This document shows positions 16,743-46,821 of a stretch of DNA of 64,000 nucleotides, in pieces. The stretch comes from an uncultured candidatus Brocadiaceae bacterium (GTDB lineage Bacteria > Planctomycetota > UBA11346), in contig CAZZAM010000004.1 of assembly GCA_964652775.1 (NCBI GenBank), positions 112,947 through 176,946 on the forward strand. The letters are read 5' to 3'. Both the position numbers and the translations under genes were made by a program. Every line of letters begins with the position of its first letter. Within the stretch, counting starts at the first letter, position 1. Below the pieces are notes generated by a model, which saw nothing but the letters and a program-made list of their open reading frames with translations, was not told the DNA's origin and did not search any database.

Positions 16743-17978
16743 ATGCGCATAGCCTGGATTGCTGCTGGTGCCGGCCGCCTCTGGTGCGGAGCCTGTGCCC
16801 GCGACCTAGCCCTCGTGCGGGCGCTGACGGCTGTTGGCCATGAAGTCACCGTCATTCCCGTGTATTTGCCGCTGCGAACAGAGGGTGTTGATCCGAGTGC
16901 GGGGCAGCCGGTGATCTCCGGCGGGTTAGGAACCTGGCTACGTGAGCAGATGCCGCTGTACGATCGTTTGCCTCACTGGATTCATCGACTGCTGGCGGAG
17001 CGTGCTGTTTTGCGCGCTGTTTCTGCCTATGCAGGCGCGACCCAGCCAACGAAATTAGGACGGCTAACCGTCTCCATGTTGGAGGGCATGCACGGTCGGC
17101 AACGTGCTGGGGTGGATGAGTTGGTTGAGCATCTGCTGACGTTGCGACCCGAACGCATCCATCTCAGCAATAGTCTACTGCTCGGTTACGCGCCGACGTT
17201 ACGTGAACGTCTTGGTGTTCCGGTGGACTGTTCACTTCAAGGCGAAGAGGTTTTTGTTCACGACCTTGGTTCGCCGTGGTCAGCGCAGGCTCAGCAGTTG
17301 ATGCAGCTACATGCAGGCGCCATAGCGCGTTTTTGGTCGCCGCATCCGCGTCACGCTGCGGCCATGTCGGCGTGGCTGAGTGTCCCGCGTGACCGGATCA
17401 GCATCGTGCCACCAAGTGTCGAGCTCACGCAGCCGAGCGGAGTGGCCAGGCCACCGTCTGCCATCATCGGCCACCTCGGCGTGATGATCTGGAAGAAGGG
17501 GGCGGATGTGCTCGCGGCGGCGGCGCGGCAGTTGCCATCGCCTTGTCGCCTGCGCTTTGCAGGCCAAGAACCCGATCGTCGCTACGCACGCAGTCTGCGT
17601 CGCAGCTGTGCTGGACTCAGCGTCGAGTTTTTGGGTGAATTGTCTCCAGCAGCCAAGCGGCGGTTCTTTGCCGACTGCCGCATCGTGGTGATTGGTAGTC
17701 GTCATCCCGAAGAGCGTGGGATGGTGGCGCTCGAAGCTTTGGCTATGGGTGTGCCGGTGATTGCGCCACATGCCGGCATCATGCCTGACCTCGTGGCCAG
17801 CGGTGCGCTGCGGACGTATCGTCCCAGTGATGCCAAGGATCTCGCCCGGGTGTTGGCGACGGCGTTGGCCGATCCTGAATTGGATGCTCAGGTGTTGGCG
17901 GCACCGGATTGGATCGCGGCTCATCATGGACCAACCGTGGCGGCAGCGGCAGCGAGTGCGGCGTTGGGCAGAAATTAG
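16743..17978 (+). CDS. Glycosyltransferase family 4 (GT-B fold)
   Basis: C-terminal GT1/GT4 donor-binding motif VIGSRHPEERGMVALEALAMGVPVIAP (E-x7-E region). The start is taken at the internal ATG (MRIAWIAAGAG). Confidence 0.7.
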   Translation: MRIAWIAAGAGRLWCGACARDLALVRALTAVGHEVTVIPVYLPLRTEGVDPSAGQPVISGGLGTWLREQMPLYDRLPHWIHRLLAERAVLRAVSAYAGATQPTKLGRLTVSMLEGMHGRQRAGVDELVEHLLTLRPERIHLSNSLLLGYAPTLRERLGVPVDCSLQGEEVFVHDLGSPWSAQAQQLMQLHAGAIARFWSPHPRHAAAMSAWLSVPRDRISIVPPSVELTQPSGVARPPSAIIGHLGVMIWKKGADVLAAAARQLPSPCRLRFAGQEPDRRYARSLRRSCAGLSVEFLGELSPAAKRRFFADCRIVVIGSRHPEERGMVALEALAMGVPVIAPHAGIMPDLVASGALRTYRPSDAKDLARVLATALADPELDAQVLAAPDWIAAHHGPTVAAAAASAALGRN

Positions 17979-18148
17979 AAATGAGAAGGAAGAAGGAAGG
18001 AATCGCTAGCAAAGCAACCAAACGCGTTTTCGTCCTTAATCCTTCATCATTTCGCCCCAACTCGCATGGTCCACGTAGGCTTAGACTAGCTTGCTACTAA
18101 GGGGTTGTTTGCCTCGTTGTGCGGTAAATAATTCCGTGGGGTAATCAC

Positions 18149-19567
18149 ATGGCTGTCGTCGGCTCAGTTGCCGTCGCGTCTTCGGTGGTGGTCCGCTGGT
18201 TGTTGCCAGTGGTCATTGCCGCAGCGGCATCGTGGGCTGGCTGGTGGTTTTTTGCGCACCAAACCGTGACGCTGGATCCTCGACTGCCGGGAAGCGATCG
18301 TCCAGCCGGCATGGCGGTGGTCGCACGAGTGAATCTGATGGGCAGCTTTACGCAGGGTACTGGCATACCGTTGGTCGAGTCTGAACCGCATACGTGGCCA
18401 GGCTTCCGTGGCAGTGCGGGCGACAACGTGGCGCGGAGCAACGCACTCGGCACGACGTTCCCACCCACTGGTCCACGCAAGGTCTGGTCATTGCCACTTG
18501 GTTTTGGTTATGCTGGTCCGGCGGTGGCCGAGGGTCGAGTCTATATTCTCGACTACGACCAGAAACGACAGGCCGACGCATTGCGCTGTTTGTCACTTGC
18601 CGATGGAGTCGAAATCTGGCGGCGTAGTTACGCCGTGAAGGTGAAATTCAATCACGGGATGTCGCGCACGGTGCCGGCGATCGGTGGTGGGTGCGTGGTT
18701 ACTATTGGACCGAAGTGTCATGTTCTCTGCGTCGATGCGCGGAGTGGTGATTTTCGTTGGGGCATTGATCTCGTGCGGGATGTCGGAACCAAAGAGCCAC
18801 CGTGGTACGCTGGCCAGTGTCCGCTCATTGATGGCAATCGGGTGATTCTTGCTCCGGCCGGGCCTGATGTACTGCTGATGGCGGTGGACCTCGGCACGGG
18901 AAAGCCGCTGTGGACTACGGCGAACACGCAGGGTTGGTCGATGACGCACTCGTCGGTGGTCAAAGCGACGTTATGCGGCCGCGAGGAGTTCATCTATTGT
19001 GGAAGCGGCGGTGTGGTTGGTGTCGATGCCCGTGATGGCCAGGTGTTGTGGCAGACCAACGCGTGGAAGATTAATATCGCCACCGTTCCGACACCAATTC
19101 CCTGCGGTAATGACCGTGTTTTTGTGTGCGGTGGTTACAATGCTGGTTCGGCCATGCTGAACATGCGCGAACAGGGCGGAAAGCTGGAGGCAGCGGTGCA
19201 GTGGCGTCTTCCGGCCAAAGAATTCGGCAGCGATCAGCAAACGCCGGTGCTGTTCGGCGACCGTATCTACGGTGTCATTCCCGATGGCCAACTCGTCTGC
19301 CTTGGTCTTGACGGCACCCGACTCTGGAGCAGTGGCATGAGCAACCGTTTTGGTCTGGGGCCATATCTGATCGCCTCCCAAGCCGTGTGGCTCTTGGATG
19401 ACAACGGCACGCTGAGTGTGGCAGCAACCACCACGGATCATTTCGAACGCCTGGCCACAGCCAAGGTCCTCACTGGTCACGATGCATGGGGACCGATGGC
19501 TGTCGTGGGCAACCGCCTACTGGCGCGTGATCTTGACACCCTGGTTTGTTTGGAGGTGAACCCATGA
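18149..19567 (+). CDS. PQQ-like (BamB-type) beta-propeller repeat protein with N-terminal membrane anchor
   Basis: N-terminal TM (WLLPVVIAAAASWAGWWFFA), then repeated blade motifs (G.VYILD..., LWQTNAW, G.DGTRLWSS) of the PQQ-enzyme-repeat superfamily. First gene of the long coupled operon. Confidence 0.75.
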   Translation: MAVVGSVAVASSVVVRWLLPVVIAAAASWAGWWFFAHQTVTLDPRLPGSDRPAGMAVVARVNLMGSFTQGTGIPLVESEPHTWPGFRGSAGDNVARSNALGTTFPPTGPRKVWSLPLGFGYAGPAVAEGRVYILDYDQKRQADALRCLSLADGVEIWRRSYAVKVKFNHGMSRTVPAIGGGCVVTIGPKCHVLCVDARSGDFRWGIDLVRDVGTKEPPWYAGQCPLIDGNRVILAPAGPDVLLMAVDLGTGKPLWTTANTQGWSMTHSSVVKATLCGREEFIYCGSGGVVGVDARDGQVLWQTNAWKINIATVPTPIPCGNDRVFVCGGYNAGSAMLNMREQGGKLEAAVQWRLPAKEFGSDQQTPVLFGDRIYGVIPDGQLVCLGLDGTRLWSSGMSNRFGLGPYLIASQAVWLLDDNGTLSVAATTTDHFERLATAKVLTGHDAWGPMAVVGNRLLARDLDTLVCLEVNP

Positions 19568-20541
19568 GCGAAACTCCAGCGCCACCCAACAACGTCCCGC
19601 GACGAAAATTGCTGCAGATCGGCATTGCTGGCCTTGGCATCGGCATTGCCAGTGCAGCTGCGTGGGCCGCCGGACGGCGTGAGCCGGATGGCGAAGTGTT
19701 GTACAACGACACCGCCTGGCGGCGCACCGATCCAGCGCTCATCCGCTATCGTGAAGTCGAGCGCATTCCCACCGGTTTGCAGCGTCCACGCGCTCTGGCG
19801 ATTGCGCACGACGGCACACTGTACATCGCCGGAGACCGTTGCGTCGTATCGATTGCCCCCGAGGGCAAACGCCGCTCCGAAGTGGCCTGTGCGGACGCTC
19901 CGCGTTCATTGGCGATCACCACGGATGGCACCGTTCTGGTTGGATTGCGTGATCGCGTCCAGCCGATCAGTAGGGATACTGCGGGTCCGACCTGGGAGGC
20001 CTTGGCTGTCGATGCGCAGATCACCGGTCTTGCAGCACATCCATCCGGTGATGTGTATGCCGCTGATGCCGGTGGGCGGGCATTGTGGCGTTTCCGTGAT
20101 GGCAAGGCGCTCAACCGGATTGGCGGTGAAGGTGATCACGAGTTTATTATCCCCAGCCCGTACATGGATGTGCAGATTGGCCCCGATGGCTTGGTCTGGG
20201 TGGCCAACACCGGTCGCCATCGCTTGGAGGCCTACGATCAGCAGGATCATCGCGTGCGCATGTGGGGAGCCGAAGGCTTCGCGATCGAACGTTTCTGTGG
20301 CTGCTGTAATCCCGCTGATTTTTCCGTGTTACCAGATGGTCGTTTCATCACCAGCGAGAAGGGACTGCCACGGGTGAAGCGTTACGCCGCAGATGGTCGC
20401 TTTGAGTGCGTGGTCGCAGCGGTTGAGACGTTTGCGCCGCAAACCGTCGGGCTGGATATCGCGGTGGCTGCTGACGGTCGCGTGCTGATCCTCGATCCGA
20501 TTGAAAAGGCCGTACGGATCTATGTGGAGAAGAACGCATGA
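19564..20541 (+). CDS. TAT-exported NHL-repeat beta-propeller protein
   Basis: Twin-arginine signal (VPRRKLLQIGIAGLGIGIASAAAWA); repeated DG.LYIAG / DGTVLVG / SGDVYAAD / DGLVWVAN / DGRFITS / DGRVLILD blades typical of NHL/SMP-30-like 6-bladed propellers; unusual CGCC motif (ERFCGCCNPADF). Its ATG overlaps the previous stop (ATGA). Confidence 0.65.
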   Translation: MSETPAPPNNVPRRKLLQIGIAGLGIGIASAAAWAAGRREPDGEVLYNDTAWRRTDPALIRYREVERIPTGLQRPRALAIAHDGTLYIAGDRCVVSIAPEGKRRSEVACADAPRSLAITTDGTVLVGLRDRVQPISRDTAGPTWEALAVDAQITGLAAHPSGDVYAADAGGRALWRFRDGKALNRIGGEGDHEFIIPSPYMDVQIGPDGLVWVANTGRHRLEAYDQQDHRVRMWGAEGFAIERFCGCCNPADFSVLPDGRFITSEKGLPRVKRYAADGRFECVVAAVETFAPQTVGLDIAVAADGRVLILDPIEKAVRIYVEKNA

Positions 20542-20735
20542 AGGATCGCCGCAGTTTCTTGCGTTGGTTTGCGCTCGGCGCTCTGGCCACCGGCCTGGCG
20601 ACGTTAATCACCAGACGTGGCACAACCCCATCGAGTGAGACCTGTGTAAATCAGGGGCTCTGTCGTGGTTGTGGTGCTTACGATGGCTGTCATCTGCCAC
20701 AGGCCTTGTCTATGAAGCAGGAGCTGCGGCGATGA
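20538..20735 (+). CDS. Small (65 aa) twin-arginine-signal Cys-rich protein
   Basis: MKDRRSFLRWFALGALATGLATLI matches the TAT consensus (RRxFL + hydrophobic region), followed by CVNQGLCRGCGAYDGCH (C-x5-C-x2-C-x5-C-H). Its start overlaps the NHL-protein stop (ATGA) and its stop overlaps the ferredoxin start, consistent with translational coupling. Confidence 0.45.
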   Translation: MKDRRSFLRWFALGALATGLATLITRRGTTPSSETCVNQGLCRGCGAYDGCHLPQALSMKQELRR

Positions 20736-21274
20736 ACTTCACCCGCCGCGACATGCTGCGAGGCATTGGCATCCTGGCAGTGGCGTCGGGAGTTGGCGCT
20801 GCGGCGCATGGCGTACCAGGACCACGGACCGTGTGGCAGATCGATCCGCACAAGTGCACCCAGTGCGGACGCTGTGCTCATACGTGCGTGCTGACACCAT
20901 CAGCGGTGAAATGCGTTCACGCGTATGCGGTATGTGGTTACTGCGACCTGTGCACCGGATTCTTCGAGGCCGAAGCCAATGGACTCAACACTGGCGCCGA
21001 GAATCAACTCTGCCCAACCAACGCGATCCAACGCCGTTTTGTCGAAGATCCGTATTTCGCTTATCACATTGACGAAAGCGCCTGCATCGGTTGCGCGCGC
21101 TGCGTGAAGGGCTGTTCATCGTACGGAAACGGCTCGATGTTTTTGCAGATCCGCCATGATCGCTGCGTCAACTGCAACCAATGCTCGATCGCCAGTGACT
21201 GTCCAGCGCAGGCCATTCACCGCGTCCCAGCCGATCAGCCCTACATCCTCAAGACGAAACCGGGGAAGGCGTGA
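20732..21274 (+). CDS. TAT-exported poly-ferredoxin (NapG/MauM/NosG-like, 4x[4Fe-4S])
   Basis: TAT signal MNFTRRDMLRGIGILAVASGVGAAAHG, then four Cys clusters (CTQCGRCAHTC; CGYCDLC...CP; CIGCARCVKGC; CVNCNQCSIASDCP). Confidence 0.8.
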   Translation: MNFTRRDMLRGIGILAVASGVGAAAHGVPGPRTVWQIDPHKCTQCGRCAHTCVLTPSAVKCVHAYAVCGYCDLCTGFFEAEANGLNTGAENQLCPTNAIQRRFVEDPYFAYHIDESACIGCARCVKGCSSYGNGSMFLQIRHDRCVNCNQCSIASDCPAQAIHRVPADQPYILKTKPGKA

Positions 21275-22554
21275 GCCGAATTGCGACGCTCAGCAAGTGG
21301 CGTTGCTCCGCCGTGCGCTGGGTCGCATTGCTGATGCTGGTGGCGTTTGCTTGTGCCGAGGAACGTTTCCCGCCGCCTGACTTCAGTCCCGGATATACGA
21401 TTCCATCGACCACCGTTCCTGGGCCACGCGCCGAGTGGCTGGCGGTTCTCGATGTGGTACTGCTTGCCCTGGCACTTGGCCTCGCGGGTTGGGCAACCTT
21501 GGTCAAACGCTCGCGCACTGCCGCGGTCTGGATCGCCGTTGGCTCCTTGCTGTGGTTTGGTTTTATGCGCCAAGGCTGCGTCTGTTCGATCGGTTCGATC
21601 CAAGATGTGACCCGAGCCGCGGCTCAAGGCGGGGGACTGAGTTGGGTTGCGGCGGCATTCTTTTTTCTGCCGCTGGCGACCGCCTTGATTGCTGGCCGCT
21701 TGTTTTGCAGCGGCGTCTGTCCGCTCGGCGCGATCCAGGATTTGGTCCTCGTGCAACCGTTGCGGCTGCCGAGTTGGCTGAGCGGATTTCTCAGCCTGTT
21801 TCCCTACGTCTATCTGGCATTGGCCGTCGTGTGGGCCGCAACTGGAGCCGCCTATGTCATCTGTGCGTACGATCCGTTTGTCGGCTTCTTCCGCTTCGGT
21901 GGACCGGCGTGGCTGTTGATTGCCGGTGGTGGTCTCTTGTTATTGGGCACGGTAGTTGGTCGGCCATACTGCCGTTTTTTGTGTCCGTATAGCGTGCTGT
22001 TGCGCTGGTTATCCCCGTTATCGCGCTGGCGCATCCGCATTCATCCGAGTGCCTGTACGAACTGCCGTCTGTGTGAAAATTCCTGCCCATTTGATGCGAT
22101 AGCCATGCCTGTGCAGACTGCTGCGCCGCGTCCATCGCGTGTGCTGTTGGCGGTACTAGTGCTCGCCGCCCCGCTGTTGGTTGCGCTTGGTGGATGGCTG
22201 GGTTGGCGCTCGGGTGACACGCTTGCTGGTCGCCATGCGACGGTTGCGTTGGCGGAGCGTATCCGTGCAGAGGACGCCGGCACCGCTATGAGCGCAAACG
22301 ATGCGGCCGAATCCTTCCGCCGAACCGGTAAACCGACGGAAGCACTGTTTGCCGCCGCTGCGGACGTTCGCCAACAGACCAATATGTACGCAGCCGCCGC
22401 CGGTGCGTTCCTGGGACTCGTCGTCGCCGTGGGATTAATTCGCCGCAGCCGACGTCAGCACCAGACCACCTACGAAGCCGAGCCAGGAACTTGTTTGTCG
22501 TGTGCTCGTTGCCTTCCCGATTGTCCAGGCGGACTTCCAGCGGTGACCACATGA
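21271..22554 (+). CDS. Membrane-bound Fe-S protein, NapH/MauN/NosH/CcoG-like
   Basis: Multiple TM helices with the paired C-x3-CP motifs typical of NapH (CSGVCPLG, CRFLCPYS), plus a ferredoxin motif CTNCRLCENSCP. GTG start overlaps the previous stop. Confidence 0.8.
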   Translation: MSRIATLSKWRCSAVRWVALLMLVAFACAEERFPPPDFSPGYTIPSTTVPGPRAEWLAVLDVVLLALALGLAGWATLVKRSRTAAVWIAVGSLLWFGFMRQGCVCSIGSIQDVTRAAAQGGGLSWVAAAFFFLPLATALIAGRLFCSGVCPLGAIQDLVLVQPLRLPSWLSGFLSLFPYVYLALAVVWAATGAAYVICAYDPFVGFFRFGGPAWLLIAGGGLLLLGTVVGRPYCRFLCPYSVLLRWLSPLSRWRIRIHPSACTNCRLCENSCPFDAIAMPVQTAAPRPSRVLLAVLVLAAPLLVALGGWLGWRSGDTLAGRHATVALAERIRAEDAGTAMSANDAAESFRRTGKPTEALFAAAADVRQQTNMYAAAAGAFLGLVVAVGLIRRSRRQHQTTYEAEPGTCLSCARCLPDCPGGLPAVTT

Positions 22555-24212
22555 GGCGCATTCCCTGGCTAGTTATCGCGGTTATTGCTGGGCTTTTCTC
22601 GGTTATGATCACAGCGGCGATGATCGCCAATCTGAGTCACCTGCGCAGTGCAGATCCGCTCCGGAACGGTGATCTAGCGGCTTTGAAAGCGGAGCTCGCC
22701 CAGCATCCCAAAGACGAAGCGCTGAAGACCAAGATCCGTGAACACGATGCCGCGGTTCGCAGTCGTTGGTTTAGTAGCGTTGCGGTCGGCCAACGCGGAG
22801 CTTGGTTGTTATTGCTTGGTGTCGCACTGACCGTGCTGGCAGTAAAACAGGGTCTCCGTGCGCAGGAGGCTCCATTTGACCCGCGACCAGTCCCGCCGCC
22901 GAATCCCACCCGCGTTGTGGCGATGTCACGCTGGGGCTTGGCCGCCGGTGGGATCGTGCTCGCCATAGGACTGTTGCTACTCGGTGGCCAACCAACACCG
23001 GAGTCACAGTCAAGCGGCGAGGTCACAGTACGCTCGCAGCCGTCGCCCGCAGAGTTGGCGCGGAATTGGCCAAGCTTTCGTGGCTCGGCGTCCGGGCTAG
23101 CCGCTGGTGCGGCGCCAATTGCATGGGACGCAGTCGCTGGCACCGGAGTTCTTTGGAAAATTGAACCACCACTGCCGGGACTTTCATCTCCAGTAGTCTG
23201 GGGCGATACCGTGTATGTGAGTGGATCAGATGGTAAAAACCAGGAGATATCAGCGTATGCCAGCGCCACTGGCGACCGGCGTTGGTCGTGTCGAATTCCG
23301 CTGCCAGCGGGCGCTGTCGTCGAAGCCTACGAGGCAACTGGGCATGCGGCACCAACGCCAGTAACTGACGGACAGGTGGTGGTTGGCGTGTTTGCTTCTG
23401 GGGTGCTTGCTGCGGTATCCTGTGATGGCCGTCTCCTGTGGAGTCAGTCGCTCGGCATACCAGATAATTCGTACAGTCTCGCTGCGTCGCCGGTGATTTG
23501 GCAGGACCGCGTGATTATGCAACTGGATCAGGGCGCGGTCGAAGACGGTCGCTCGGCTCTATTGGCATTCGATCTCAGCAACGGACGGAAATTATGGCGC
23601 ACGGCGCGACCGGTTGCCGCTTCATGGGCTTCTCCGTTGGTGACAACATTGGCTGGGCGCGCGCAAGTAATCACCTGTTCTGATCCGTGGGTAATTTCCT
23701 ATGACCCTGCGCAAGGACGAGAATGGTGGCGAGCCAAAGTTCTTTCCGGCGAGGTGTCGTCGTCGCCCACGGTTGCCGGTGGATGTGTCATCGCCGTAAA
23801 ACCCAATGCTGAATTGGTGGCGATTCGTCCTGATGGCAGCGGCGATGTGACGGCAAGTCACATCGCATGGCGTGGCGAAGACTCAGTTCCTGATATGTCG
23901 AGTCCAACTGGTGACGCAACAATGTTGGCATTATTCAATGGTGACATGTTGTGCTGTGACGCCGTGACAGGGACAAAACTCTGGCAGCATCCAGGCACTA
24001 ACGCGGTGATTGCATCGCCGATTATTGCCGACGGAAGACTCTACGTCATCGACGAGACTGGTTCGACGACTATCTTTGCTTGGGACCGGAGCTTGAAAGT
24101 CCTCGGTACGGCGCACTTCGGCGAGAAGATTTCATCAACACCGGCGGTGGTGGATGGGCGCATCTATGTACGCGGCGACAAGCATCTCTTTTGCATCGGT
24201 TCAGCGCCGTGA
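22551..24212 (+). CDS. PQQ-like beta-propeller repeat protein with N-terminal membrane anchor
   Basis: TM helix (IPWLVIAVIAGLFSVMITAAMIA), a long linker, then PQQ-like blades (WPSFRGS, DTVYVSGSDG, GRKLWRT, GTKLWQH, DGRLYVIDETG, DGRIYVRGD). ATGA overlap with the previous gene. Confidence 0.75.
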   Translation: MRRIPWLVIAVIAGLFSVMITAAMIANLSHLRSADPLRNGDLAALKAELAQHPKDEALKTKIREHDAAVRSRWFSSVAVGQRGAWLLLLGVALTVLAVKQGLRAQEAPFDPRPVPPPNPTRVVAMSRWGLAAGGIVLAIGLLLLGGQPTPESQSSGEVTVRSQPSPAELARNWPSFRGSASGLAAGAAPIAWDAVAGTGVLWKIEPPLPGLSSPVVWGDTVYVSGSDGKNQEISAYASATGDRRWSCRIPLPAGAVVEAYEATGHAAPTPVTDGQVVVGVFASGVLAAVSCDGRLLWSQSLGIPDNSYSLAASPVIWQDRVIMQLDQGAVEDGRSALLAFDLSNGRKLWRTARPVAASWASPLVTTLAGRAQVITCSDPWVISYDPAQGREWWRAKVLSGEVSSSPTVAGGCVIAVKPNAELVAIRPDGSGDVTASHIAWRGEDSVPDMSSPTGDATMLALFNGDMLCCDAVTGTKLWQHPGTNAVIASPIIADGRLYVIDETGSTTIFAWDRSLKVLGTAHFGEKISSTPAVVDGRIYVRGDKHLFCIGSAP

Positions 24213-26527: not shown

Positions 26528-26552
26528 CTGCTTCACATGCTGTGGCCGCTCC

Positions 26553-28118
26553 ATGAAACTGCGCATCGACAACCGGGACGTTGAAGTCGCTGAAGGCGCG
26601 ACCGTGTTGGAGGCCGCTACCAAGGCTGGCATCGCCATTCCCACGTTGTGTCATCTTCCGGGTAAACCCTGTCAAACGTCGTGTTTGGTGTGCGTGGTGC
26701 GCATTGACGGCGGCAAACGGCTGGTGCCGTCATGCGCGACCAAGGCGCGTGAGGGGATGCATGTGGATAGCTCGGGTCCGCAGATCCGCGCCGCTCGCCG
26801 CACGGCGCTCGAGTTACTGTTCGGCTATCATTACGGCGATTGCCTGGCCCCATGTGAAACGGTGTGCCCGACGCAATTCGATGTGCCCGAGTTGATCCGC
26901 TTGGCCAAGTCGTGGCAGCTTGAAGAAGCCATGTTGGTGATGTTGGAGCGTGCCGCTTTACCTGGTGTTTTGGCCCGGGTATGCCCAGCACCCTGCGAGC
27001 GTAGTTGTCGCCGTCAGCAAGGTGATGGTTCGCTGGCAGTTCGTTCGGTCGAACGCTTAGTGGCAGACGCGGACCTGGCGGCTGGGTGCGTGTTGCCGAT
27101 ATGCCGGAAAGACAGCGGTAAGCGCGTCGCCATCGTTGGTGCTGGCCCAGCGGGATTGGCCACCGCATTTCATCTGCGTCGTTTCGGTCATGCCTGTGCG
27201 CTCTTCGATGCGGCACCGGTTGCTGGCGGCGCGTTACGCAATGCGCTGCCCGAGGAAGTGCTGCCAGCCGCCGTACTGGATGCCGAAGTATCGCGGATTC
27301 TCCGCCTTGGTGCCACGTTCCATGGAGGTCGTCGGTTGGGCAGCGATCTTGTGCTGAGCGATCTGCGCCGCGATTATGATGCGGTAGTCCTAGCGCTGGG
27401 CGTGATTGACGCCGAGCAGGCAAAGGCGCTTGGACTCGCCTACGCCAAGAACGGTTTGGCCGCAGCCAGCGGCAGTGGCGCAACGGCACAGCCAGGCATT
27501 TTCGTAACCGGATCGGCGATGTTGCCAGCTCAACAAGCTGTGCGTGCGATTGCGTCCGGACGCGGTGTCGCCGTGGCGGTGGATCGTTTCCTGGCTGGTG
27601 CCGAGCCGCAGGCTGAAGGCCGCGGTTGGTCTGTGCGGGTGGGCAAGATTCCTGCTCCTGATCTCCAACACATGATTCGTTTGGCTTCAGCGAGTCCTCG
27701 CCACGAACCTTCGCCCGGTGGTTGTTTGGAGGAAGATGCGGCCAAGGACGAAGCCTCGCGTTGTCTTGCGTGCTCCTGTTCCAGCCGACATGACTGCACG
27801 CTGCGTCGCTACGGTGATGAGTACCAGGCCGAACCGGCTCGATTCCGCTCGCCTTTGCCGCCACTCCAGCGTGATGACAGCCATCCCTTGGTAAGTTATG
27901 AACCGGGTAAGTGCATCGCCTGTGGAATTTGCGTGAGCATTGCTGCTGATTATGGTGAACAACTCGGACTCGGCTTTGCCGGTCGCGGTTACACCATCCA
28001 GGTTGCCGTGCCGCTGGGCGGCTCGATGCGCGAGGCGCTGCAGGTGTCAGCCGTCGCCTGTGCGGCAGCTTGTCCAACCGGTGCCATTGCGGTAAAAGCC
28101 CAGGCATGCCCACCCTGA
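26553..28118 (+). CDS. Fe-S flavoprotein: N-terminal NuoG/HoxU-like 2Fe-2S ferredoxin fused to GltD-like FAD/NAD(P)H oxidoreductase
   Basis: MKLRIDNRDVEVAEGATVLEAA...CHLPG...C..C.VCVV (NuoG-N 2Fe-2S), CPAPCERSC (GltD-type 4Fe-4S), VAIVGAGPAGLATAF (Rossmann GxGxxG), and further C-terminal Cys clusters (CLACSCSS..C, CIACGICV). Confidence 0.75.
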   Translation: MKLRIDNRDVEVAEGATVLEAATKAGIAIPTLCHLPGKPCQTSCLVCVVRIDGGKRLVPSCATKAREGMHVDSSGPQIRAARRTALELLFGYHYGDCLAPCETVCPTQFDVPELIRLAKSWQLEEAMLVMLERAALPGVLARVCPAPCERSCRRQQGDGSLAVRSVERLVADADLAAGCVLPICRKDSGKRVAIVGAGPAGLATAFHLRRFGHACALFDAAPVAGGALRNALPEEVLPAAVLDAEVSRILRLGATFHGGRRLGSDLVLSDLRRDYDAVVLALGVIDAEQAKALGLAYAKNGLAAASGSGATAQPGIFVTGSAMLPAQQAVRAIASGRGVAVAVDRFLAGAEPQAEGRGWSVRVGKIPAPDLQHMIRLASASPRHEPSPGGCLEEDAAKDEASRCLACSCSSRHDCTLRRYGDEYQAEPARFRSPLPPLQRDDSHPLVSYEPGKCIACGICVSIAADYGEQLGLGFAGRGYTIQVAVPLGGSMREALQVSAVACAAACPTGAIAVKAQACPP

Positions 28119-28747
28119 CAGCGAGCGGATTAGTTAAACGGCACCTTGGTGCAGGCCGTGATATCCTTTCGCATCTCGACCTGACGGTACATTCCGGCGA
28201 GACGGTGGCGATTCTTGGCCCATCGGGCTCAGGCAAGAGTACGCTGCTGCATTGTCTGGGCACGCTGGATCGTCCCGACGCTGGCTGCATTCGCCTTGGC
28301 GATACCGATCTGCTCGCTTTGACCGGCGAAGATCTGCGGCGGTTTCGTGCGCAACGACTGGGCCTTATTTTTCAAGAGCATCATTTGCTGCCGCATCTGA
28401 GTGCGCTTGAAAATGTGCTGGTGCCGCCAGGTGCTCAGCTGGGATCTGCCCAGCGTTTGTTGAACCGTCTTGGCCTGACCCATCGCGCCAATGCGTTTCC
28501 AGCGCACTTGTCTGGCGGTGAACGTCAACGCGTGGCCGTGGCCCGGGCGTTGATCAATGCGCCGCACATGCTGCTGTGCGACGAACCGACCGGCAGCCTG
28601 GATCGGGCCACTGGAGTTGAAGTCGCTGGGATCATCTTCGAGTTGGCTGCCGAGGTAGGTGCGGTTGTAGTAATTGCGACACACGACGACGTGCTGGGGT
28701 CACGCTGCGCACGTCGCCTGCATCTGAACGACGGCGCGTTGGCATGA
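28106..28747 (+). CDS. ABC transporter ATP-binding protein (MacB/LolD/FtsE-like)
   Basis: Walker A GPSGSGKST, Q-loop, LSGGERQRVAVARAL signature, Walker B LLCDEPTGSLD. The ATG lies 13 nt inside the previous gene. Confidence 0.85.
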   Translation: MPTLTASGLVKRHLGAGRDILSHLDLTVHSGETVAILGPSGSGKSTLLHCLGTLDRPDAGCIRLGDTDLLALTGEDLRRFRAQRLGLIFQEHHLLPHLSALENVLVPPGAQLGSAQRLLNRLGLTHRANAFPAHLSGGERQRVAVARALINAPHMLLCDEPTGSLDRATGVEVAGIIFELAAEVGAVVVIATHDDVLGSRCARRLHLNDGALA

Positions 28748-31700
28748 AGATCATCACCCTTGCCTGGCGAGCGGCGCGGTACCACCGTGGCCTCGCCGGA
28801 GCTGCCGCAGTTGGCGTGGCGATCAGCACCGCGGTAATTACTGGGGCATTGTTGTTGGGGGACAGCCTGCGTGCGACCCTGAGACAGCAGTTGGATGCGC
28901 GTCTGGGCAATGTGGGTCAAGCGATCATTGCGCCGCGATCAGTAAGTCCGTCATTGGCAGACACACCCGGCGCCGCTGGCATCCGTTATCTTGATGGCAC
29001 TGCGGCCAGTGAAGATGGAGCAACGATTCCGGCCCGCGTATTGGGTGTTGATGAACGCAGTCATCTGTTGTTTTCTGATTTACCACCGTTGCCTCCACGC
29101 ACTGCGGCGGTCAGTCCTGCTCTGGCTCGTGATCTGCATCTCCACGTTGGTGATGGGTTGTTGGTCGCTGTGCGGATTGGTCAGCAGTTACCGGCTGGGT
29201 CCGCATTTGCTGAAACGCGTCACGAACGCCTGCAGCGGCGCATGCGCGTCACCATTGCTGCGATCTTGCCCGATCCCGGCGTTGGCGGATTCAGTCTTGA
29301 TCCCGGCCTCGATGCGCCGCGCAGCGTGTGGCTTGATCGTACCTGGCTTGCCGGCGTTCTCGGTGAAGACCGTATCGATGTCATCCTTGGCGATGCCGAT
29401 ACGCGACTTGATCTAGCGGCGCAGGTTGCGTTGACCGATCTCGGAATCCGTCTCGTCAACGATGTGAAACTCGGACAGGTGACCGTACAGAGCGATGGGC
29501 TGGTCATGGCGCCGGGATTGGCTTCGGCCGTACGCGGTGCGGCAAAGGCGTGTGGTAGTACTGCCGAAGCGAACGCGATTCATCTGGCCGATCGTATCGT
29601 GCGCGATGGTGGTGGTGAAGCGTCGTACGCGTTGATCGCTGCGCGTGAACGTACGGGGATTACCAAGCCAGCATCTGACAGCATCGATCTGTCAGCCTTG
29701 CTGTCCGACAGCATCACTCTGTCAGCCTGGCTGGCGGAAGATCTTGGCGCTGCAGTTGGCGATCAGTTACGCGTGCAATTTCCACTCGCTGGCGACCGCA
29801 TGGAAGAGGTGCGTCTGCGGGTGGGATTGATAATTCCCGACGACCTAGCCGCCAACGATCCCGCCATCGTTCCAGTCGTTCCTGGTCTCACCGACGCCGA
29901 GCGCATCGAGAATTGGGATCTGCCGTATGCCATTGCATCGACGCGCATCACGTCTCGGGACGATGCGTGGTGGGCCGCACATCACACCGCCCCCAAAGCG
30001 TTCGTGCATCCGTCGGTGTTACAACGATTGTGGGCCATGGGACCACTCGGCAGTGCTGGACCGTGGATTTCTGGTCTGCGCGTGCGTCCGCCAGCCGGCG
30101 AAGATCTAACGGCATTTTCTGATCGTTTATCATCTGCAGTGCGATGCGCTGTGGCGCCAGCAGATGCCGGCCTGTCGGCGCAGCAGGTGCGGCGACATGC
30201 TGAGTCTCGTGCACAGGGTAACGCTGATCTCGGAGGGTTGTTTCTCGGTCTCGGTATCGTGGTGATCTGCGCTGGACTCGCGCTAACTGCGGCTCTGGTT
30301 CGCTTACAGATTTGTCAACGCGCAACTGAAGTCGGCGTTCTCTTGGCGTGTGGTTGGAGTACCGCCGCGGTGCGTTGTTTGTTGCTCATGGAGGCAGTGA
30401 CCATCAGTGCGTTTGGTGCGGTGCTCGGCACGATGCTGGGTGTGGGATGGGCTCGTCTGCTCATTCTGTTGCTGTCCTCTGATTGGGCAGGCACAGCGGT
30501 TGCCGTGCCGTTGACCCTGTACCTCAGTCCGAGTTCCATGCTGATCGGTGGATTCATCGGTCTGGTGACGGGAACAATGGCTGCAGCGTGGGGTCTGCGT
30601 GCGCTGTTGCGGCAAGAACCTGGGACCTTGCTGATTGGATCCCGTACGCCGTCCGCCAACACGGAGCGGCGTTGGCGTGTGCCACTCGTTTTCGCTGAAG
30701 CACTGCGCTTTCCTGGGCGCAGTTTCCTGGCCATCGGCTTGATGGCTGCTTCAGCAGCAATCCTGATTCTCGTAGCGGCACAGCGACGCGGCGTGAGTGA
30801 GGTCGGCCGCGATGGTCCGACCGGCGGCTACGCGATGCGCGTCACCACGGCCTTACCGATTCCTGAAAATCTCGCGAGTCCGACTGGGCGCGCACGCCTC
30901 GGTTGCACGCCTGAAGAAGAACGTGTCTTAGCCGACATGCAGGTTGCTGCATTCCTGGTCGGTCCCGGTGAAGATATCTCGTGTCGTAATCCTGCGCGTC
31001 CATCCCAGCCACGCATGCTGGGATGTTTGTCGGCAATGAGTGGCTTTGGTGTAACGGCCACGGCTTGGGAATCGTTGTCTGTAGGAGGTGATCCAATTCC
31101 GGTTCTTGGTGATGCCGATAGTTTACGTTGGACGCTGGGCATTGGTTCCAGTGGCACGGCTCGGGTGACGATCCGAGGCAGCGAACGCGAAGTGCGGATC
31201 GTTGGCGCGTTTCCAGGCAGCGTATTTGCGGGCGAGTTGGTTATGGGTGAAGCTGCATTTCGCCGGTGTTTTCCGTCCGTTACTGCGCCAACCTATTTTC
31301 TGCTCCAGCTTCCTGCCGAGCAGACTGTCGCGGCGGCCACGATCCTACGCCGTCGGCTGGCTGGTTTTGGGGTCGAGGTGCGAGCGACGGTCGACGTCGT
31401 GACCGCCCAACTCGCGGTCCGCGATGCGTACCTGTCGCTGTTTCTGGCGCTGGGCAGCCTCGGCTTATTGATTGGTGCCGGTGGTCTTGCGGTCGTGTTT
31501 GCACGTAGTGCTTTGGAACGGCGTGCAGAACTAGCCTTGTTGGCTGCCCTTGGTCATCGTCCTAGTCTGATCCTGTTTGCCGGTCATACGTTGTTGTTGG
31601 GCCTTGGCCTGGTCGTCGGTCTCATCCTGGCAGCAGGTGCAGTTGCGCTTGGTCCTCCGACCCACGGGGCTTGGATGGCGGCTTGTCCAGCTGTTGTAGC

Positions 31701-31788
31701 CGTGGTGCTGACCGCCGTGCTGACCGCAGCCGTGGCAGCACGGCGTTGCGCAGATCAGGATTTGGTGCAGGAATTGCGACGTGAGTAA
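28744..31788 (+). CDS. FtsX-family ABC permease, large MacB-like with extended periplasmic domains
   Basis: 1014 aa; N-terminal TM then a long periplasmic region, two blocks of clustered TM helices (around 30.2-30.7 kb and 31.4-31.75 kb), consistent with duplicated FtsX domains. ATGA overlap with the ATPase. Confidence 0.8.
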   Translation: MKIITLAWRAARYHRGLAGAAAVGVAISTAVITGALLLGDSLRATLRQQLDARLGNVGQAIIAPRSVSPSLADTPGAAGIRYLDGTAASEDGATIPARVLGVDERSHLLFSDLPPLPPRTAAVSPALARDLHLHVGDGLLVAVRIGQQLPAGSAFAETRHERLQRRMRVTIAAILPDPGVGGFSLDPGLDAPRSVWLDRTWLAGVLGEDRIDVILGDADTRLDLAAQVALTDLGIRLVNDVKLGQVTVQSDGLVMAPGLASAVRGAAKACGSTAEANAIHLADRIVRDGGGEASYALIAARERTGITKPASDSIDLSALLSDSITLSAWLAEDLGAAVGDQLRVQFPLAGDRMEEVRLRVGLIIPDDLAANDPAIVPVVPGLTDAERIENWDLPYAIASTRITSRDDAWWAAHHTAPKAFVHPSVLQRLWAMGPLGSAGPWISGLRVRPPAGEDLTAFSDRLSSAVRCAVAPADAGLSAQQVRRHAESRAQGNADLGGLFLGLGIVVICAGLALTAALVRLQICQRATEVGVLLACGWSTAAVRCLLLMEAVTISAFGAVLGTMLGVGWARLLILLLSSDWAGTAVAVPLTLYLSPSSMLIGGFIGLVTGTMAAAWGLRALLRQEPGTLLIGSRTPSANTERRWRVPLVFAEALRFPGRSFLAIGLMAASAAILILVAAQRRGVSEVGRDGPTGGYAMRVTTALPIPENLASPTGRARLGCTPEEERVLADMQVAAFLVGPGEDISCRNPARPSQPRMLGCLSAMSGFGVTATAWESLSVGGDPIPVLGDADSLRWTLGIGSSGTARVTIRGSEREVRIVGAFPGSVFAGELVMGEAAFRRCFPSVTAPTYFLLQLPAEQTVAAATILRRRLAGFGVEVRATVDVVTAQLAVRDAYLSLFLALGSLGLLIGAGGLAVVFARSALERRAELALLAALGHRPSLILFAGHTLLLGLGLVVGLILAAGAVALGPPTHGAWMAACPAVVAVVLTAVLTAAVAARRCADQDLVQELRRE

Positions 31789-32995
31789 GCTTCGCCTCAG
31801 CGCGCTTATCGTTGCTATCCTCCTGGCAGCATGGATAGGCGTGGTGATGACGCGCTCTGAGCCTGTTCTTCCGACGCCGCGCTCCACGCTGCCGACCCAT
31901 CAGCCGCCGACGGCGTCGTTGCCTGCTACGGTTGCGCCATGTGAACGGGTTGATTGGCCGTCCTATCGCGGTTCTCCAGCCCTAGCGGGCACAGCGAGAT
32001 CTCTTCCTGGAATTCCAGTGCGAAAATGGTCCTGGGAGGCTGGAGCCTCCGTCATTGCCACGGCGGCTATTGTCGGTGATGGCGTCTTTGTTGCGACCCA
32101 GCGCGGCGTTTTGGCGCGATTACGCTTGCGGGACGGCCACGAAATGTGGCGACTGCCCGGCGGAGCTCCGTATGTCGGCAGTCCGCTTGTCGTAGACGGT
32201 ACAGTCTATGTCGGGGATGAAGACGGAGTTGTTCGTGCCGTTGATGCTGCGAGTGGCGCTCTCCGCTGGTCACGTGACCTTGAAGCAAAAATCATGGGCT
32301 CGCCGACGGCTGCTCCGACATCGATACTGATTGGCACATACGGGAATGTCCTGTTGCGACTCGCCGTCAATGACGGACACACGTTGTGGTCGGTCAACAG
32401 CGATAGCTACGTGCACGCGACTGCGGCGGTGGTCGGCGACTGGGTTGTATTTGCTGGATGTGATGCCGATGTGCATTGCCTGGACATGTCCGATGGCAGT
32501 CAACGTGGTCACTATCCAGGAAAGGATCCTTACGCAGCTGCGCCAGCATGCGTGGGCAACACAGCCTGGGTTGCATCGCACAGCGGAACCGTTGCGGCCC
32601 TGACGTTGCCTGCGGTCACGGTGCGTTGGCACAAGCCAGGCGGGATAGGCGAGATTACCGAGGCCGCAGCCGCAGATGGCATTCATGCCGTATTTGCGGG
32701 AGGTGCTGGCGCCTTGGTGTGCTTAGCCGCTCGTGATGGCGCGTTGCGTTGGACGGTTCGTCTGGGAACCGGAGTTCGAGCGCCGCCGGTGATCTGTGGC
32801 GATCAGGTCATCCAGGGTGCCGAGGATGGCGTGCTACGTGGCTTGGACCTGAGCGATGGCAAGGAACGCTGGCGCTTTGCTGCTGGCGGAGCAATCCGCG
32901 CTGGGGCAGCGATCGCTGGCCCGTGGTTGATTATTCCGACTACCGATGGAGCGGTGCACGGTTTGTGCGCTGAATCAACATCGTCTGGGCCCTAG
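31781..32995 (+). CDS. Secreted PQQ-like beta-propeller repeat protein
   Basis: Signal/anchor (LSALIVAILLAAWIGVV), a Pro/Thr linker, then WPSYRGS and repeated DG.VYVGDEDG / LRWS / GHTLWS blades. GTG start overlaps the permease stop by 8 nt. Confidence 0.7.
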   Translation: MSKLRLSALIVAILLAAWIGVVMTRSEPVLPTPRSTLPTHQPPTASLPATVAPCERVDWPSYRGSPALAGTARSLPGIPVRKWSWEAGASVIATAAIVGDGVFVATQRGVLARLRLRDGHEMWRLPGGAPYVGSPLVVDGTVYVGDEDGVVRAVDAASGALRWSRDLEAKIMGSPTAAPTSILIGTYGNVLLRLAVNDGHTLWSVNSDSYVHATAAVVGDWVVFAGCDADVHCLDMSDGSQRGHYPGKDPYAAAPACVGNTAWVASHSGTVAALTLPAVTVRWHKPGGIGEITEAAAADGIHAVFAGGAGALVCLAARDGALRWTVRLGTGVRAPPVICGDQVIQGAEDGVLRGLDLSDGKERWRFAAGGAIRAGAAIAGPWLIIPTTDGAVHGLCAESTSSGP

Positions 32996-33088: not shown

Positions 33089-33358
33089 ATGCTTGCGTCA
33101 TTTAATGCATTCGTCCTGCGCCATATCGCCACGATTGAAATGATCGGTGTGCTCATGCGAATTACCTGTTTTGGCATGATGAGCTTTATGAACAAGGATA
33201 GCCCCTTTCTCTTCGTGTGGATATTCAATACCATTGACGCAATTATGTTGTCATGGTGCTCGGTGCTGCGACGAGACCGAGCCTACACCACGCTCAATGT
33301 TTTTTGGATACTCGTTGGCATTAACGGCATCGTGCAGGTGACGCGGGCGGCGCACTGA
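33089..33358 (+). CDS. Small hypothetical 3-TM membrane protein within an AT-rich islet
   Basis: 89-aa ORF with three hydrophobic segments. Local base composition (~33.06-33.36 kb) is visibly less GC-rich than the flanks. Confidence 0.35.
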   Translation: MLASFNAFVLRHIATIEMIGVLMRITCFGMMSFMNKDSPFLFVWIFNTIDAIMLSWCSVLRRDRAYTTLNVFWILVGINGIVQVTRAAH

Positions 33359-34704: not shown

Positions 34705-34783
34705 GAGATGCTCCTGGCGGTGCGAGATTGCGGCAGTTGATCGGGTCAAGACCGAAATGGAAGCCACGGTCGACAGATGAAAG

Positions 34784-35300: not shown

Positions 35301-35513
35301 TAATCCATTCGTCGCAATCCTGGTGTTGCGGTCACATGGTGTGGCGCATTAACCATGCGTGACAATTGTCCTGTATAATTCCGTCATACGGCCATTTGTT
35401 CTTTGTTGTGGCTTCCTCAATTTGCGGTTGCTTCATTATCATCACTACGTACAGGTAGCATGTTCTCTCGTTTCAAACTTCGCCCATTTAGCACACCTAC
35501 GGAGCGCAGCATA

Positions 35514-37811: not shown

Positions 37812-37825
37812 ATCGCGGAACCACT

Positions 37826-42346: not shown

Positions 42347-42353
42347 GGCCACC

Positions 42354-43769: not shown

Positions 43770-43771
43770 CA

Positions 43772-46809: not shown

Positions 46810-46821
46810 CAGGATCATGCC

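Follow-up and report, generated by a model that had tools for sequence, protein, structure and literature searches.

What do eleven genes do that run head to tail and yet encode no recognizable catalytic subunit? The question is raised by positions 18149 to 32995 of a 64,000-nucleotide stretch (the window; positions 112,947 to 176,946 of contig CAZZAM010000004.1, assembly GCA_964652775.1) from an uncultured candidatus Brocadiaceae bacterium. An earlier note on this DNA, made from its letters alone, proposed an operon that carries NAD(P)H electrons across the membrane to an exported beta-propeller protein. We find that the system is a Bfu enzyme with a previously undescribed membrane and periplasmic third arm, and that its genes are part of a set of roughly twelve that hundreds of bacteria, most of them uncultured, have kept together. 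A description of this cluster was not found in the searchable literature, with most subscription journals outside reach.

The eleven genes (g1 to g10 plus g2b) all lie on the plus strand. From g1 to g10 the junctions measure -4, -4, -4, -4, -4, -4, +25, -13, -4, and -8 nt, so the coordinates bear out the earlier description of eleven genes joined by overlaps of 4 to 13 nt or a gap of at most 25 nt. The Pfam scan of the window proteins likewise agreed with every domain call that had been made for these open reading frames (ORFs), including the three PQQ-like propellers (PQQ_2 in g1, g5, and g10). TAT stands for twin-arginine translocation, and ABC for ATP-binding cassette.

18149-19567, plus strand: g1 (PQQa), a membrane-anchored eight-bladed PQQ_2 beta-propeller (Pfam PQQ_2, 96 bits)
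19564-20541, plus strand: g2, a six-bladed NHL beta-propeller with an RR (TAT-type) signal and a G-C-C-N-P motif (Pfam NHL)
20538-20735, plus strand: g2b, an ORF of 65 amino acids overlapping its neighbors, with an RRxFLK-like motif, a hydrophobic helix, and a Cys4 motif, C-x6-C-x2-C-x5-C
20732-21274, plus strand: g3, a TAT-signal polyferredoxin with four predicted [4Fe-4S] sites (Pfam Fer4 families)
21271-22554, plus strand: g4, a NapH-like integral membrane polyferredoxin (Fer4_5, which covers CX3CP, 44 bits, plus ferredoxin motifs)
22551-24212, plus strand: g5 (PQQb), a PQQ_2 beta-propeller after three hydrophobic segments (PQQ_2, 99 bits)
24209-26527, plus strand: g6, a BfuC-BfuB fusion (2Fe-2S_thioredx, Complex1_51K, NADH_4Fe-4S, and Fer4)
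26553-28118, plus strand: g7, a truncated BfuA, NfnA/StnC-like (Fer2_4, Fer4_20, Pyr_redox_2, and Fer4_Nqo3)
28106-28747, plus strand: g8, a LolD/MacB-type ABC ATPase, accessory (ABC_tran, 118 bits)
28744-31788, plus strand: g9, a duplicated FtsX-type permease of 1014 amino acids with large periplasmic domains, accessory (FtsX, 52.5 bits)
31781-32995, plus strand: g10 (PQQc), a third PQQ_2 beta-propeller, with an N-terminal anchor (PQQ_2, 121 bits)

A scan for sigma-70 promoters and terminators gave numbers at or below shuffle expectation and was uninformative; the case for cotranscription of g1 to g10 therefore rests on the gene overlaps. The gene that brings the count to eleven, g2b, has ATGA overlaps with both flanking genes.

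We searched for the cluster in other genomes by scanning one genome per species with the NHL protein, and 402 genomes encode a relative. The best 80 of these 402 genomic hits were mapped as loci, in which all window proteins were placed by phmmer; the counts given below take in only loci with enough flanking sequence, and 33 loci are fully covered. The NHL protein also has >2267 relatives in a protein collection, and a library of 1.84 billion representatives (50% identity clusters) yielded 790 matches at E <= 1e-30. A ferredoxin or NapH-like gene follows the NHL gene in 64 of 65 loci. PQQb is present in 54 of 57, always after the NapH-like gene, while the NuoEF-like gene is found in 43 of 52, the GltD-like gene in 39 of 50, and PQQa upstream of NHL in 57 of 70. 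The linkage of these genes is far beyond chance, because the same order, PQQa-NHL-small-Fd-NapH-PQQb-NuoEF-GltD, recurs across phyla in loci from metagenome-assembled genomes (MAGs). Independent gene calls and Pfam labels provided a second line of evidence and agree with the phmmer mapping. The suggestion that the genes form one functional unit, with NapGH-like and NuoEF-like genes linked across genomes, is supported by these counts, which show a strong linkage.

The carriers of the order span about a dozen phylum labels: Planctomycetota (including Kuenenia- and Brocadiia-labeled bins), Verrucomicrobiota, Kiritimatiellales, Pontiellaceae, Victivallales/Lentisphaerae, Armatimonadota, Anaerolineales, Aminicenantes/Acidobacteriota, Latescibacterota, Calditrichota, Omnitrophota, and Spirochaetaceae. 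Most are anaerobic, sediment or groundwater lineages. The eight-gene core order is kept among them, and the gene overlaps persist in distant relatives. In one locus (L001, 4685-7657) the NapH-like protein and PQQb are a single product of 990 amino acids; the top hits obtained with the NHL, PQQa, and NapH-like proteins gave no other informative domain fusion. Smaller forms exist as well: a Verrucomicrobia group carries only NHL-small-Fd-NapH-PQQb, without the Bfu genes, and one planctomycete has only PQQa-NHL-malectin. We define the core as NHL-(small)-Fd-NapH-PQQb, and the extended core as these genes plus PQQa and the two cytoplasmic subunits. Core and extended-core genes are translationally coupled, and their order is kept across phyla. 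The accessory parts are ABC/FtsX (9 of the 33 fully covered loci) and PQQc (13 of the 33); along with a glycosyltransferase gene described below, they vary in presence and shift position between genomes.

The family to which the system belongs is set by the cytoplasmic pair g6/g7. A BfuBC core is the defining feature of the Bfu family (PMC9304861). Judged by its domains, g6 is a complete BfuBC core, so we count the g6/g7 module as a member of this family. The protein comprises a NuoE-like [2Fe-2S] domain, a second [2Fe-2S] domain, a NuoF-like FMN/NADH domain with a [4Fe-4S] cluster, and a C-terminal 2x[4Fe-4S] ferredoxin domain, in agreement with the NuoE-NuoF-ferredoxin fusion recognized earlier. 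On the BfuC side, 2Fe-2S_thioredx scores 162.6 bits (residues 10-152). On the BfuB side, residues 186-257 match a 2Fe-2S ferredoxin model, Complex1_51K and NADH_4Fe-4S reach 150.6 and 110.5 bits, and a Fer4 match covers residues 715-771. All the cluster cysteines of g6 are conserved in 45 relatives. Its closest matches in the PDB are 9bov_B of NfnABC (E = 7e-198), 8oh5_B of Stn (1e-192), and NfnB, 9n5u_B (7e-192); HydB of bifurcating hydrogenases also matches over its whole length, and in g6 a NuoE-like domain is fused in front.

The partner, g7, contains an N-terminal [2Fe-2S] cluster site, two Fer4_20-type clusters, an FAD-type dinucleotide fold, and C-terminal Fe-S clusters. It had been described as a NuoG-N/GltD-like flavoprotein; the GltD likeness and the FAD fold stand, whereas the NADPH domain has been lost and the closest relatives are of the NfnABC/Stn type. 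When aligned with 9bov_A (E = 1e-92), query residues 2-285 correspond to chain residues 5-288 and query residues 248-515 to chain residues 399-674. The skipped chain residues, 289-398, form the NADPH Rossmann domain of roughly 110 residues, which carries the GKRVIVVGGGNTAMD motif in 9n5u_A. In addition, g7 ends at the equivalent of residue 674 of the 1178-residue chain, such that the C-terminal 500 residues (a molybdopterin-like domain) are gone, and its Pyr_redox_2 match is confined to residues 191-224. The NADPH domain is lost in 40 of 41 g7 relatives. In 36 of the 41, the segment that separates the flanking motifs has 76 residues; two have a few more, and Pontiellaceae and Kiritimatiellales have 31-49. 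In the sole keeper of the domain, a single Verrucomicrobiota MAG (L061), the segment has 222 residues and includes VIIVGGGNTAMD. The GxGxxG...D...GG dinucleotide motif is conserved in 41 of 41 relatives, while the later "GD" motif varies.

These alignments indicate that g7 keeps an FAD-type fold without a pyridine-nucleotide site, and that the FMN of g6 is the sole remaining nucleotide site of the pair. NADPH was rejected as a g7 substrate on the strength of the missing domain, as judged from the alignment to 9bov_A and from 40 of 41 relatives. The earlier assignment of NAD(P)H to both flavoproteins must be revised: on the cytoplasmic side, the substrates that can be argued for from the sequences are NADH and, probably, ferredoxin. 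Because the NADPH domain is lost, the membrane arm is the only evident third partner of g6/g7. The L061 protein, with its full NADPH domain, points to descent from an Nfn-type enzyme, and sequence comparison places the origin of the g6/g7 module there. This g7 relative (17761-20085 in its locus) appears to mark an intermediate stage in the evolution from NfnA to the truncated form.

Compared with NfnABC/StnABC (9bov, 9n5u, 8oh5), g6 holds every BfuC and BfuB domain, and g7 follows NfnA colinearly over the latter's first 288 residues and again over residues 399-674. The module differs from these enzymes in that BfuC and BfuB are fused, the A subunit lacks the NADPH Rossmann and C-terminal molybdopterin-like domains, and the genes are tied to a membrane polyferredoxin and exported proteins. 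No arrangement with a membrane polyferredoxin and exported proteins appears in a published survey of Bfu enzymes, which lists 17 BfuB clades without an assigned function and does not mention NapH (PMC9304861).

If the membrane arm is the third partner, how are its proteins built? The exported ferredoxin, g3, has 17 conserved cysteines in four groups, one more than four [4Fe-4S] clusters need, which leaves C61 spare; its RR motif is kept in >=90% of 73 relatives. The earlier call of a TAT-exported four-cluster ferredoxin thus holds. The best PDB match of g3 is 9mqx_E, a four-cluster subunit of another Bfu-type complex, and the 17 NCBIfam hits include neither a NapG nor a MauM model. The membrane protein, g4, can be recognized from its sequence as a distant NapH relative. 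It scores 40.9 and 38.1 bits on the NapH models TIGR02163 and PRK09477, against cut-offs of 213 and 234, and a PDB search found no solved structure related to its membrane part. The two CX3CP motifs (C146/C150-P and C234/C238-P) and the ferredoxin cysteines (C262-C272 and C408-C418) are conserved in 66 relatives. We aligned g4 and nine relatives with E. coli NapH (from NC_000913.3), and both CX3CP motifs and both ferredoxin half-motifs align with it. In the published topology of NapH, the CX3CP and ferredoxin motifs face the cytoplasm. By homology, then, all four motifs of g4 would lie on the cytoplasmic side, and three further conserved cysteines on the periplasmic side. These three, C103, C105, and C198, are kept in >=90% of the 66 relatives and fall in loops equivalent to periplasmic loops of NapH, which has no cysteines there.

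The g4 clade differs from E. coli NapH in other ways as well. Its N-terminus is signal-like; a conserved ERFPPPDF..GY segment comes next, then an additional helix, and all of these are missing from E. coli NapH. The loop equivalent to NapH periplasmic loop 1 has the motif G-C-x-C-(S/P)-I-G, the loop equivalent to loop 2 has I-C-x-Y-D-P-F, and two added helices enclose a 60-residue loop between the [4Fe-4S] half-motifs; in total, g4 has eight hydrophobic segments, against the four-helix topology of NapH. The cysteine triad C103/C105/C198 may form or share a redox center on the outer face, for which a fourth ligand would be needed, and the spare C61 of g3 is a speculative candidate for that ligand.

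The likeness to NapGH, NosGH, and MauMN lies in a TAT-signal four-cluster ferredoxin encoded beside a membrane protein with two CX3CP motifs and a cytoplasmic 2x[4Fe-4S] domain. The scores fall far below the family cut-offs, g4 has the added helices and the three periplasmic-face cysteines, and the partner here is a Bfu module rather than, or alongside, quinol. We detected no nap, nos, or mau genes in the window or in the related loci, and NapAB, NosZ, and methylamine dehydrogenase are absent. Judging from their motifs, g3 and g4 may work like NapGH while falling outside that family.

The layout had also been compared with clade II nos clusters (NosZ, NosGH, and NosDFY), in which a propeller, a NapGH-like pair, and an ABC system are likewise encoded together. 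This parallel is an analogy only, since ABC/FtsX is accessory here. The cluster has no NosZ, NosD, NosL, or copper-site motif, and its ABC system looks like type VII (LolD-like ATPase plus FtsX permease) and dispensable in most relatives. A nitrous-oxide reductase cluster was rejected, with NosZ, NosD, NosL, and ABC-2 type NosFY undetected by Pfam and NCBIfam. The Pfam and NCBIfam results for the window proteins also uphold the statement that there is no NosZ, cytochrome, molybdoenzyme, or other known catalytic subunit. None of the cluster's proteins reaches the cut-off of a curated family among the NCBIfam models, and public annotations of its parts are generic or misleading ("BamB", "4Fe-4S binding protein", "NosR/NirI regulator").

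What, then, receives the electrons on the outside? In this genome, the NHL protein, g2b, and the PQQ_2 propellers all bear recognizable export signals or anchors. The earlier note took the NHL protein as the focal periplasmic component. By sequence conservation, this place appears to belong to PQQa, which is the most constrained periplasmic component: it has >4313 homologues, of which the best 120 are 50-72% identical. Its AlphaFold2 (AF2) model has eight blades and a predicted local distance difference test (pLDDT) score of 92.7, and the only nearest solved folds are BamB and tetrathionate hydrolase. Almost every loop leading into the innermost strands is conserved. Conserved residues in these loops include H169, R173, C190, H191, C194, Q223, C224, H267, Q363, and Q364, and conserved loop motifs are N168-H-G-M-S-R-T; P217..W-Y-x-G-Q-C-P; N259..W..M..H267..S; Q363-Q-T-P; S395..F-G..G-P; and W447..P. 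From the secondary-structure pattern, these loop residues are likely to cluster on one face of the propeller.

We compared the propellers with BamB and with PQQ dehydrogenases and rejected membership of both families on curated thresholds. The BamB model TIGR03300 gives 39, 70, and 126 bits on the three PQQ_2 propellers (126 for PQQc), against a cut-off of 285, and the PQQ-dehydrogenase model TIGR03075, judged by model score, gives at best 51 bits against 480. The fold is shared with BamB and other PQQ_2 propellers, including tetrathionate hydrolase, with a template modeling (TM) score of 0.75-0.78 when normalized to BamB. Unlike BamB, the cluster's propellers begin with membrane helices that serve as anchors and have no lipobox or lipoprotein signal, and unlike BamB-like scaffolds, PQQa has loops that are highly conserved, polar, aromatic, and Cys-rich. 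The concern that the propellers might prove to be BamB factors with no conserved link to the Fe-S genes is thus answered on both counts: their scores are below threshold, and the linkage is strong. Of the three, PQQc travels with ABC/FtsX or with a glycosyltransferase.

The NHL protein has a canonical six-bladed AF2 model (pLDDT 89.9) with a TM score of 0.80 to the NHL domain of TRIM2; a fold search with the model returned generic NHL domains only, and no enzyme. F244, C247, N249, P250, T263, E265, K266, and R270 do not vary among 120 relatives, and C248 is kept in >=90% of them, which makes the GCCNP motif essentially invariant. The vicinal Cys247-Cys248 pair lies in a long loop of the model between strands 230-234 and 252-255, next to the loop with the TSEKGLPRVK motif, and charged residues are conserved in neighboring loops. 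In about 60 loci from many phyla, a relative of g2b occupies the corresponding position, with RRxFLK, a helix, and C-x5-6-C-x2-C-x5-6-C-x-LP. Because this layout and position recur, g2b is a real gene, for which Pfam and NCBIfam gave no match. On the conservation pattern, the Cys-Cys pair of the NHL protein appears to be the only invariant candidate redox site at the periplasmic end, with the Cys4 motif beside it.

TAT export of the NHL protein had been proposed, and this applies here and in Verrucomicrobia. Elsewhere its N-terminus varies by lineage: a lipobox in some planctomycetes, a signal anchor in Aminicenantes, and no signal at all in Anaerolineales-type loci, where the protein starts MAQWKPSGLGPEF and the adjacent small protein keeps an RREFLR motif. 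A signal-less NHL protein beside an RR-bearing small protein would fit export as a complex with a TAT-signal partner. The signal-less loci are L012, L015, L020, L022, L028, L031, L034, L054, L056, and L076, and they may reflect TAT hitch-hiker export. Loading of a complex cofactor into the NHL protein in the cytoplasm was also considered, and is unlikely given the lipoprotein, signal-anchored, and signal-less forms.

The remaining clues to the substrate come from the genes around the core. The earlier note stops short of a conserved glycosyltransferase gene that ends 170 nt before g1, and does not mention that terpenoid genes accompany the cluster in other genomes.

16743-17978, plus strand: glycosyltransferase of the GT4 family with an N-terminal CxxC (Pfam Glycos_transf_1, 70 bits)

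This protein reaches no NCBIfam model at cut-off. Members of the GT4 family turn up in 27 loci altogether, among them 13 of the 33 fully covered ones; in loci of the Aminicenantes, Latescibacterota, Calditrichota, and Spirochaeta types, the first bases of the GT4 gene typically overlap the stop of PQQc. When we clustered the unassigned ORFs of the loci, four more recurrent families emerged and were identified with Pfam; the recurrent neighbors are GT4, a squalene-hopene-cyclase-like (SHC-like) protein, a prenyltransferase alpha-alpha-toroid protein, and a DUF116-polyprenyl synthetase fusion. SHC-like genes are found in 11 of the 33 fully covered loci and about 18 overall, and their products keep the DxDDT motif. 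One strand carries, in this order, prenyltransferase-like, SHC-like, (GT4), PQQc, ABC, FtsX, and PQQa onward in Anaerolineales, in several Planctomycetota, and in a Brocadiia MAG; an Armatimonadota locus (L086) has a radical SAM protein and a ferredoxin as well. Loci with terpenoid neighbors are L007, L012, L015, L021, L023/L086, L024, L026/L087, L031, L034, L036, L038, L042, L048, L076, L077, and L085. An orphan "SHC-like" clade with no assigned function has been described in PVC, FCB, Spirochaetota, and Acidobacteriota, with a genomic context said to suggest a precursor other than squalene (PMC12414744, PMC7306690). The taxonomic range of the cluster's SHC-like neighbors matches that of this clade. 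A gene cluster with DUF116 and SHC in a Bipolaricaulota preprint is unrelated to the present one.

The ABC/FtsX pair, which had been read as part of the system, does encode an ATPase and an FtsX permease, but it is accessory, lying within the flanks of only 9 of the 33 loci, either downstream or upstream of the core. The pair resembles the type VII ABC systems (LolCDE, MacB, FtsEX, YbbAP) in combining a LolD/MacB-type ATPase with an FtsX-fold permease that has large periplasmic domains. The ATPase, g8, matches LolD structures at E = 4e-46 and scores 198 bits on the NCBIfam LolD model, against a cut-off of 308. The permease, g9, differs from those systems in being a duplicated protein of 1014 amino acids without a close solved relative; the PDB search gave only a weak match, to YtrF, and its weak MacB_PCD match (22.3 bits) is below the cut-off of 27, with FtsX at 52.5 bits. 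In 12 relatives, residues 742-756, in the second periplasmic domain of g9, hold a conserved G..S-C-x-N..R...P motif.

We propose that electrons from NADH and ferredoxin pass through g4 and g3 to a periplasmic propeller complex, where a cysteine-based reduction of an envelope-bound substrate takes place; we hold this proposal tentatively, as something short of an even chance. In this scheme, NADH would be oxidized at the FMN of g6, with ferredoxin as the probable co-substrate at the C-terminal clusters of g6. The Fe-S chain in g7 would then hand the electrons to g4 at its cytoplasmic 2x[4Fe-4S] domain, and they would cross the membrane by way of a center ligated by the CX3CP motifs, and reach the clade-specific cysteine triad at the periplasmic face. 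From there they would pass to the exported four-cluster g3 and on to the NHL protein, the small Cys4 anchor, and the propellers, which would together form a complex. The terminal step would be a two-electron, cysteine-based reduction at the NHL Cys-Cys pair, with the Cys4 motif as an adjacent one-electron relay. Cysteine-based reduction is proposed because the vicinal pair is the only invariant candidate redox site at that end. The logic is modeled on ferredoxin:thioredoxin reductase, in which one-electron Fe-S carriers reduce a disulfide, and on DsbD/CcdA, in which reducing power is exported; this is a functional analogy and a mechanistic proposal only, as there is no sequence relationship, and it is the weakest step of the proposal. 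The substrate would be envelope-bound rather than a soluble respiratory acceptor, because the recurrent neighbors are a glycosyltransferase, a Lol/MacB-type ABC-FtsX system, and terpenoid genes. In total, the only recurrent non-core neighbors are GT4, ABC/FtsX, the SHC-like cyclase, the polyprenyl synthase-DUF116 protein, the prenyltransferase-like protein, and radical SAM.

Several points weigh against this proposal. None of the propellers has a demonstrable redox cofactor site, and the NHL Cys-Cys pair could be structural or metal-binding. Thioredoxin-fold, DsbD/CcdA, cytochrome, and sulfur-transferase families do not recur among the locus neighbors. GT4, ABC/FtsX, or terpenoid genes accompany only 19 of the 33 fully covered loci, and the 64-kb window has no SHC-like, prenyltransferase-like, or DUF116 gene. 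To our knowledge, the electron crossing of NapH-type proteins is unsolved even for NapH and NosR, and we know of no assembly route for a periplasmic-face Fe-S center of a polytopic membrane protein. The NHL protein could be cytoplasmic in the lineages where it has no signal peptide, and the direction of electron flow could be reversible, by analogy with other Bfu enzymes. The statistics, moreover, rest on the 80 closest of the 402 genomic hits.

The same machine might have a biosynthetic job, that is, a reductive step on, or during the export of, a polycyclic isoprenoid glycolipid. The SHC-like, polyprenyl synthase-DUF116, prenyltransferase-like, radical SAM, and GT4 proteins would then be its makers, and the propellers and ABC-FtsX would provide Lol/Bam-like handling. 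The frequency of GT4 (13/33) and SHC-like genes (11/33) argues for this, as do their position in Anaerolineales, Planctomycetota, and Brocadiia, where they immediately precede PQQc-ABC-FtsX-PQQa and share its strand, the typical translational coupling of GT4 to PQQc in Aminicenantes-type loci, and the DxDDT motif of SHC-like proteins from a clade with a matching taxonomic range (PMC12414744, PMC7306690). The g8 ATPase is of LolD type, and catalysis could take place at the FAD fold that g7 keeps after the loss of its NADPH domain. Yet 14 of the 33 loci, including the Verrucomicrobia form, have no such gene within 10 kb, and the window holds a GT4 gene without any of the SHC-like, prenyltransferase-like, and DUF116 genes. 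We also know of no isoprenoid reduction that takes place in the periplasm or with a polyferredoxin, and overall we regard this explanation as unlikely. A soluble acceptor such as polysulfide, thiosulfate, or tetrathionate is more improbable still; here the cluster would be an electron sink or respiratory reductase disposing of NADH and reduced ferredoxin in fermentative anaerobes. The carriers are mostly from anaerobic, sediment or groundwater lineages, vicinal cysteines are able to carry persulfide sulfur, and the enzyme whose fold comes closest to PQQa is tetrathionate hydrolase, which has no cofactor. That fold match, however, is generic for eight-bladed propellers (TM about 0.6, 13-15% identity); rhodanese, Sud, Psr, and other sulfur genes are not recurrent nearby, and the neighbors that do recur are related to the cell envelope.

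Electrons could also run the other way, with a low-potential periplasmic donor oxidized at the propellers and the Bfu module bifurcating to NAD+ and ferredoxin. Enzymes of the Bfu family work in both directions, linking NAD and ferredoxin to a third substrate (PMC9304861). The complete ferredoxin-side architecture of g6 is consistent with such a direction. The characterized relatives of the membrane module, namely, NapGH, NosGH/NosR, RdhC, and CcoG, all feed a reductive process as far as is known, an oxidase-type cofactor site is not recognizable, and the Verrucomicrobia variant dispenses with the Bfu genes altogether; we therefore consider reverse flow quite unlikely. That same variant may use quinol, which would suit an explanation in which the propellers are BamB-type structural or assembly factors, while the Fe-S module works for an enzyme whose gene lies elsewhere, or takes its electrons from quinol in the manner of NapGH. 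BamB is the best structural match of PQQa, and this genome is rich in PQQ_2 genes, three further ones lying immediately after the cluster. Against these points stand the BamB scores (39-126 bits versus 285), the enzyme-like conservation of polar loop residues in PQQa, and the NapH-PQQb fusion and near-universal linkage, which argue for a direct partnership, and the probability that we assign to the scaffold role is small. That unrelated systems merely adjoin in one operon is very unlikely and hardly credible: ABC/FtsX, PQQc, and GT4 do vary in presence and position, but the eight-gene core order is constant over about a dozen phylum labels, overlaps persist in distant relatives, and one gene pair is fused.

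Given these considerations, we return to the reduction of an envelope-bound substrate by cysteine chemistry and ask how novel such a system would be. It may amount to a new kind of machine: an Fe-S-only transmembrane conduit with no heme and possibly no quinone, powered by an electron-bifurcating Bfu module and delivering low-potential electrons to a cofactor-free cysteine propeller reductase at the outer face of the membrane, which would act on an SHC-like-derived envelope lipid or glycolipid. Taken in full, this description is doubtful, and we are similarly skeptical that the periplasmic chemistry is categorically new. Bfu enzymes and NapH-type proteins are both central to anaerobic energy metabolism, and the cluster ties the two together. 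It would offer a conserved, purely Fe-S route from the NADH/ferredoxin pool to the periplasm in hundreds of uncultured lineages, which dominate anoxic sediments and groundwater. The cluster also provides a first genomic partner for the orphan SHC-like terpene cyclases, and it marks out thousands of proteins now labeled "BamB" or "NosR/NirI regulator" as components of something different.

Several other features of the region were recorded. In the gap after g10 there is a hydrophobic ORF of 89 amino acids (33089-33358) that matches no family, and three further PQQ_2 propeller genes lie directly downstream at 33508-34866 (minus strand), 35403-37811 (plus), and 37808-39379 (plus), one of which encodes a protein of 802 amino acids with a long C-terminal extension. 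LuxC and LuxE genes are found near the Verrucomicrobia version of the redox cluster (L005, 19160-21068), which may be coincidence. Farther along the window, positions 41225-50400 encode an AMP-binding (LuxE-like) protein, an aldehyde dehydrogenase, an Fe-alcohol dehydrogenase, a radical SAM protein, a tryptophan-halogenase-like flavoprotein, a thioesterase, and a second AMP-binding enzyme; this cluster is followed by a TonB-dependent receptor at 51127-53289.

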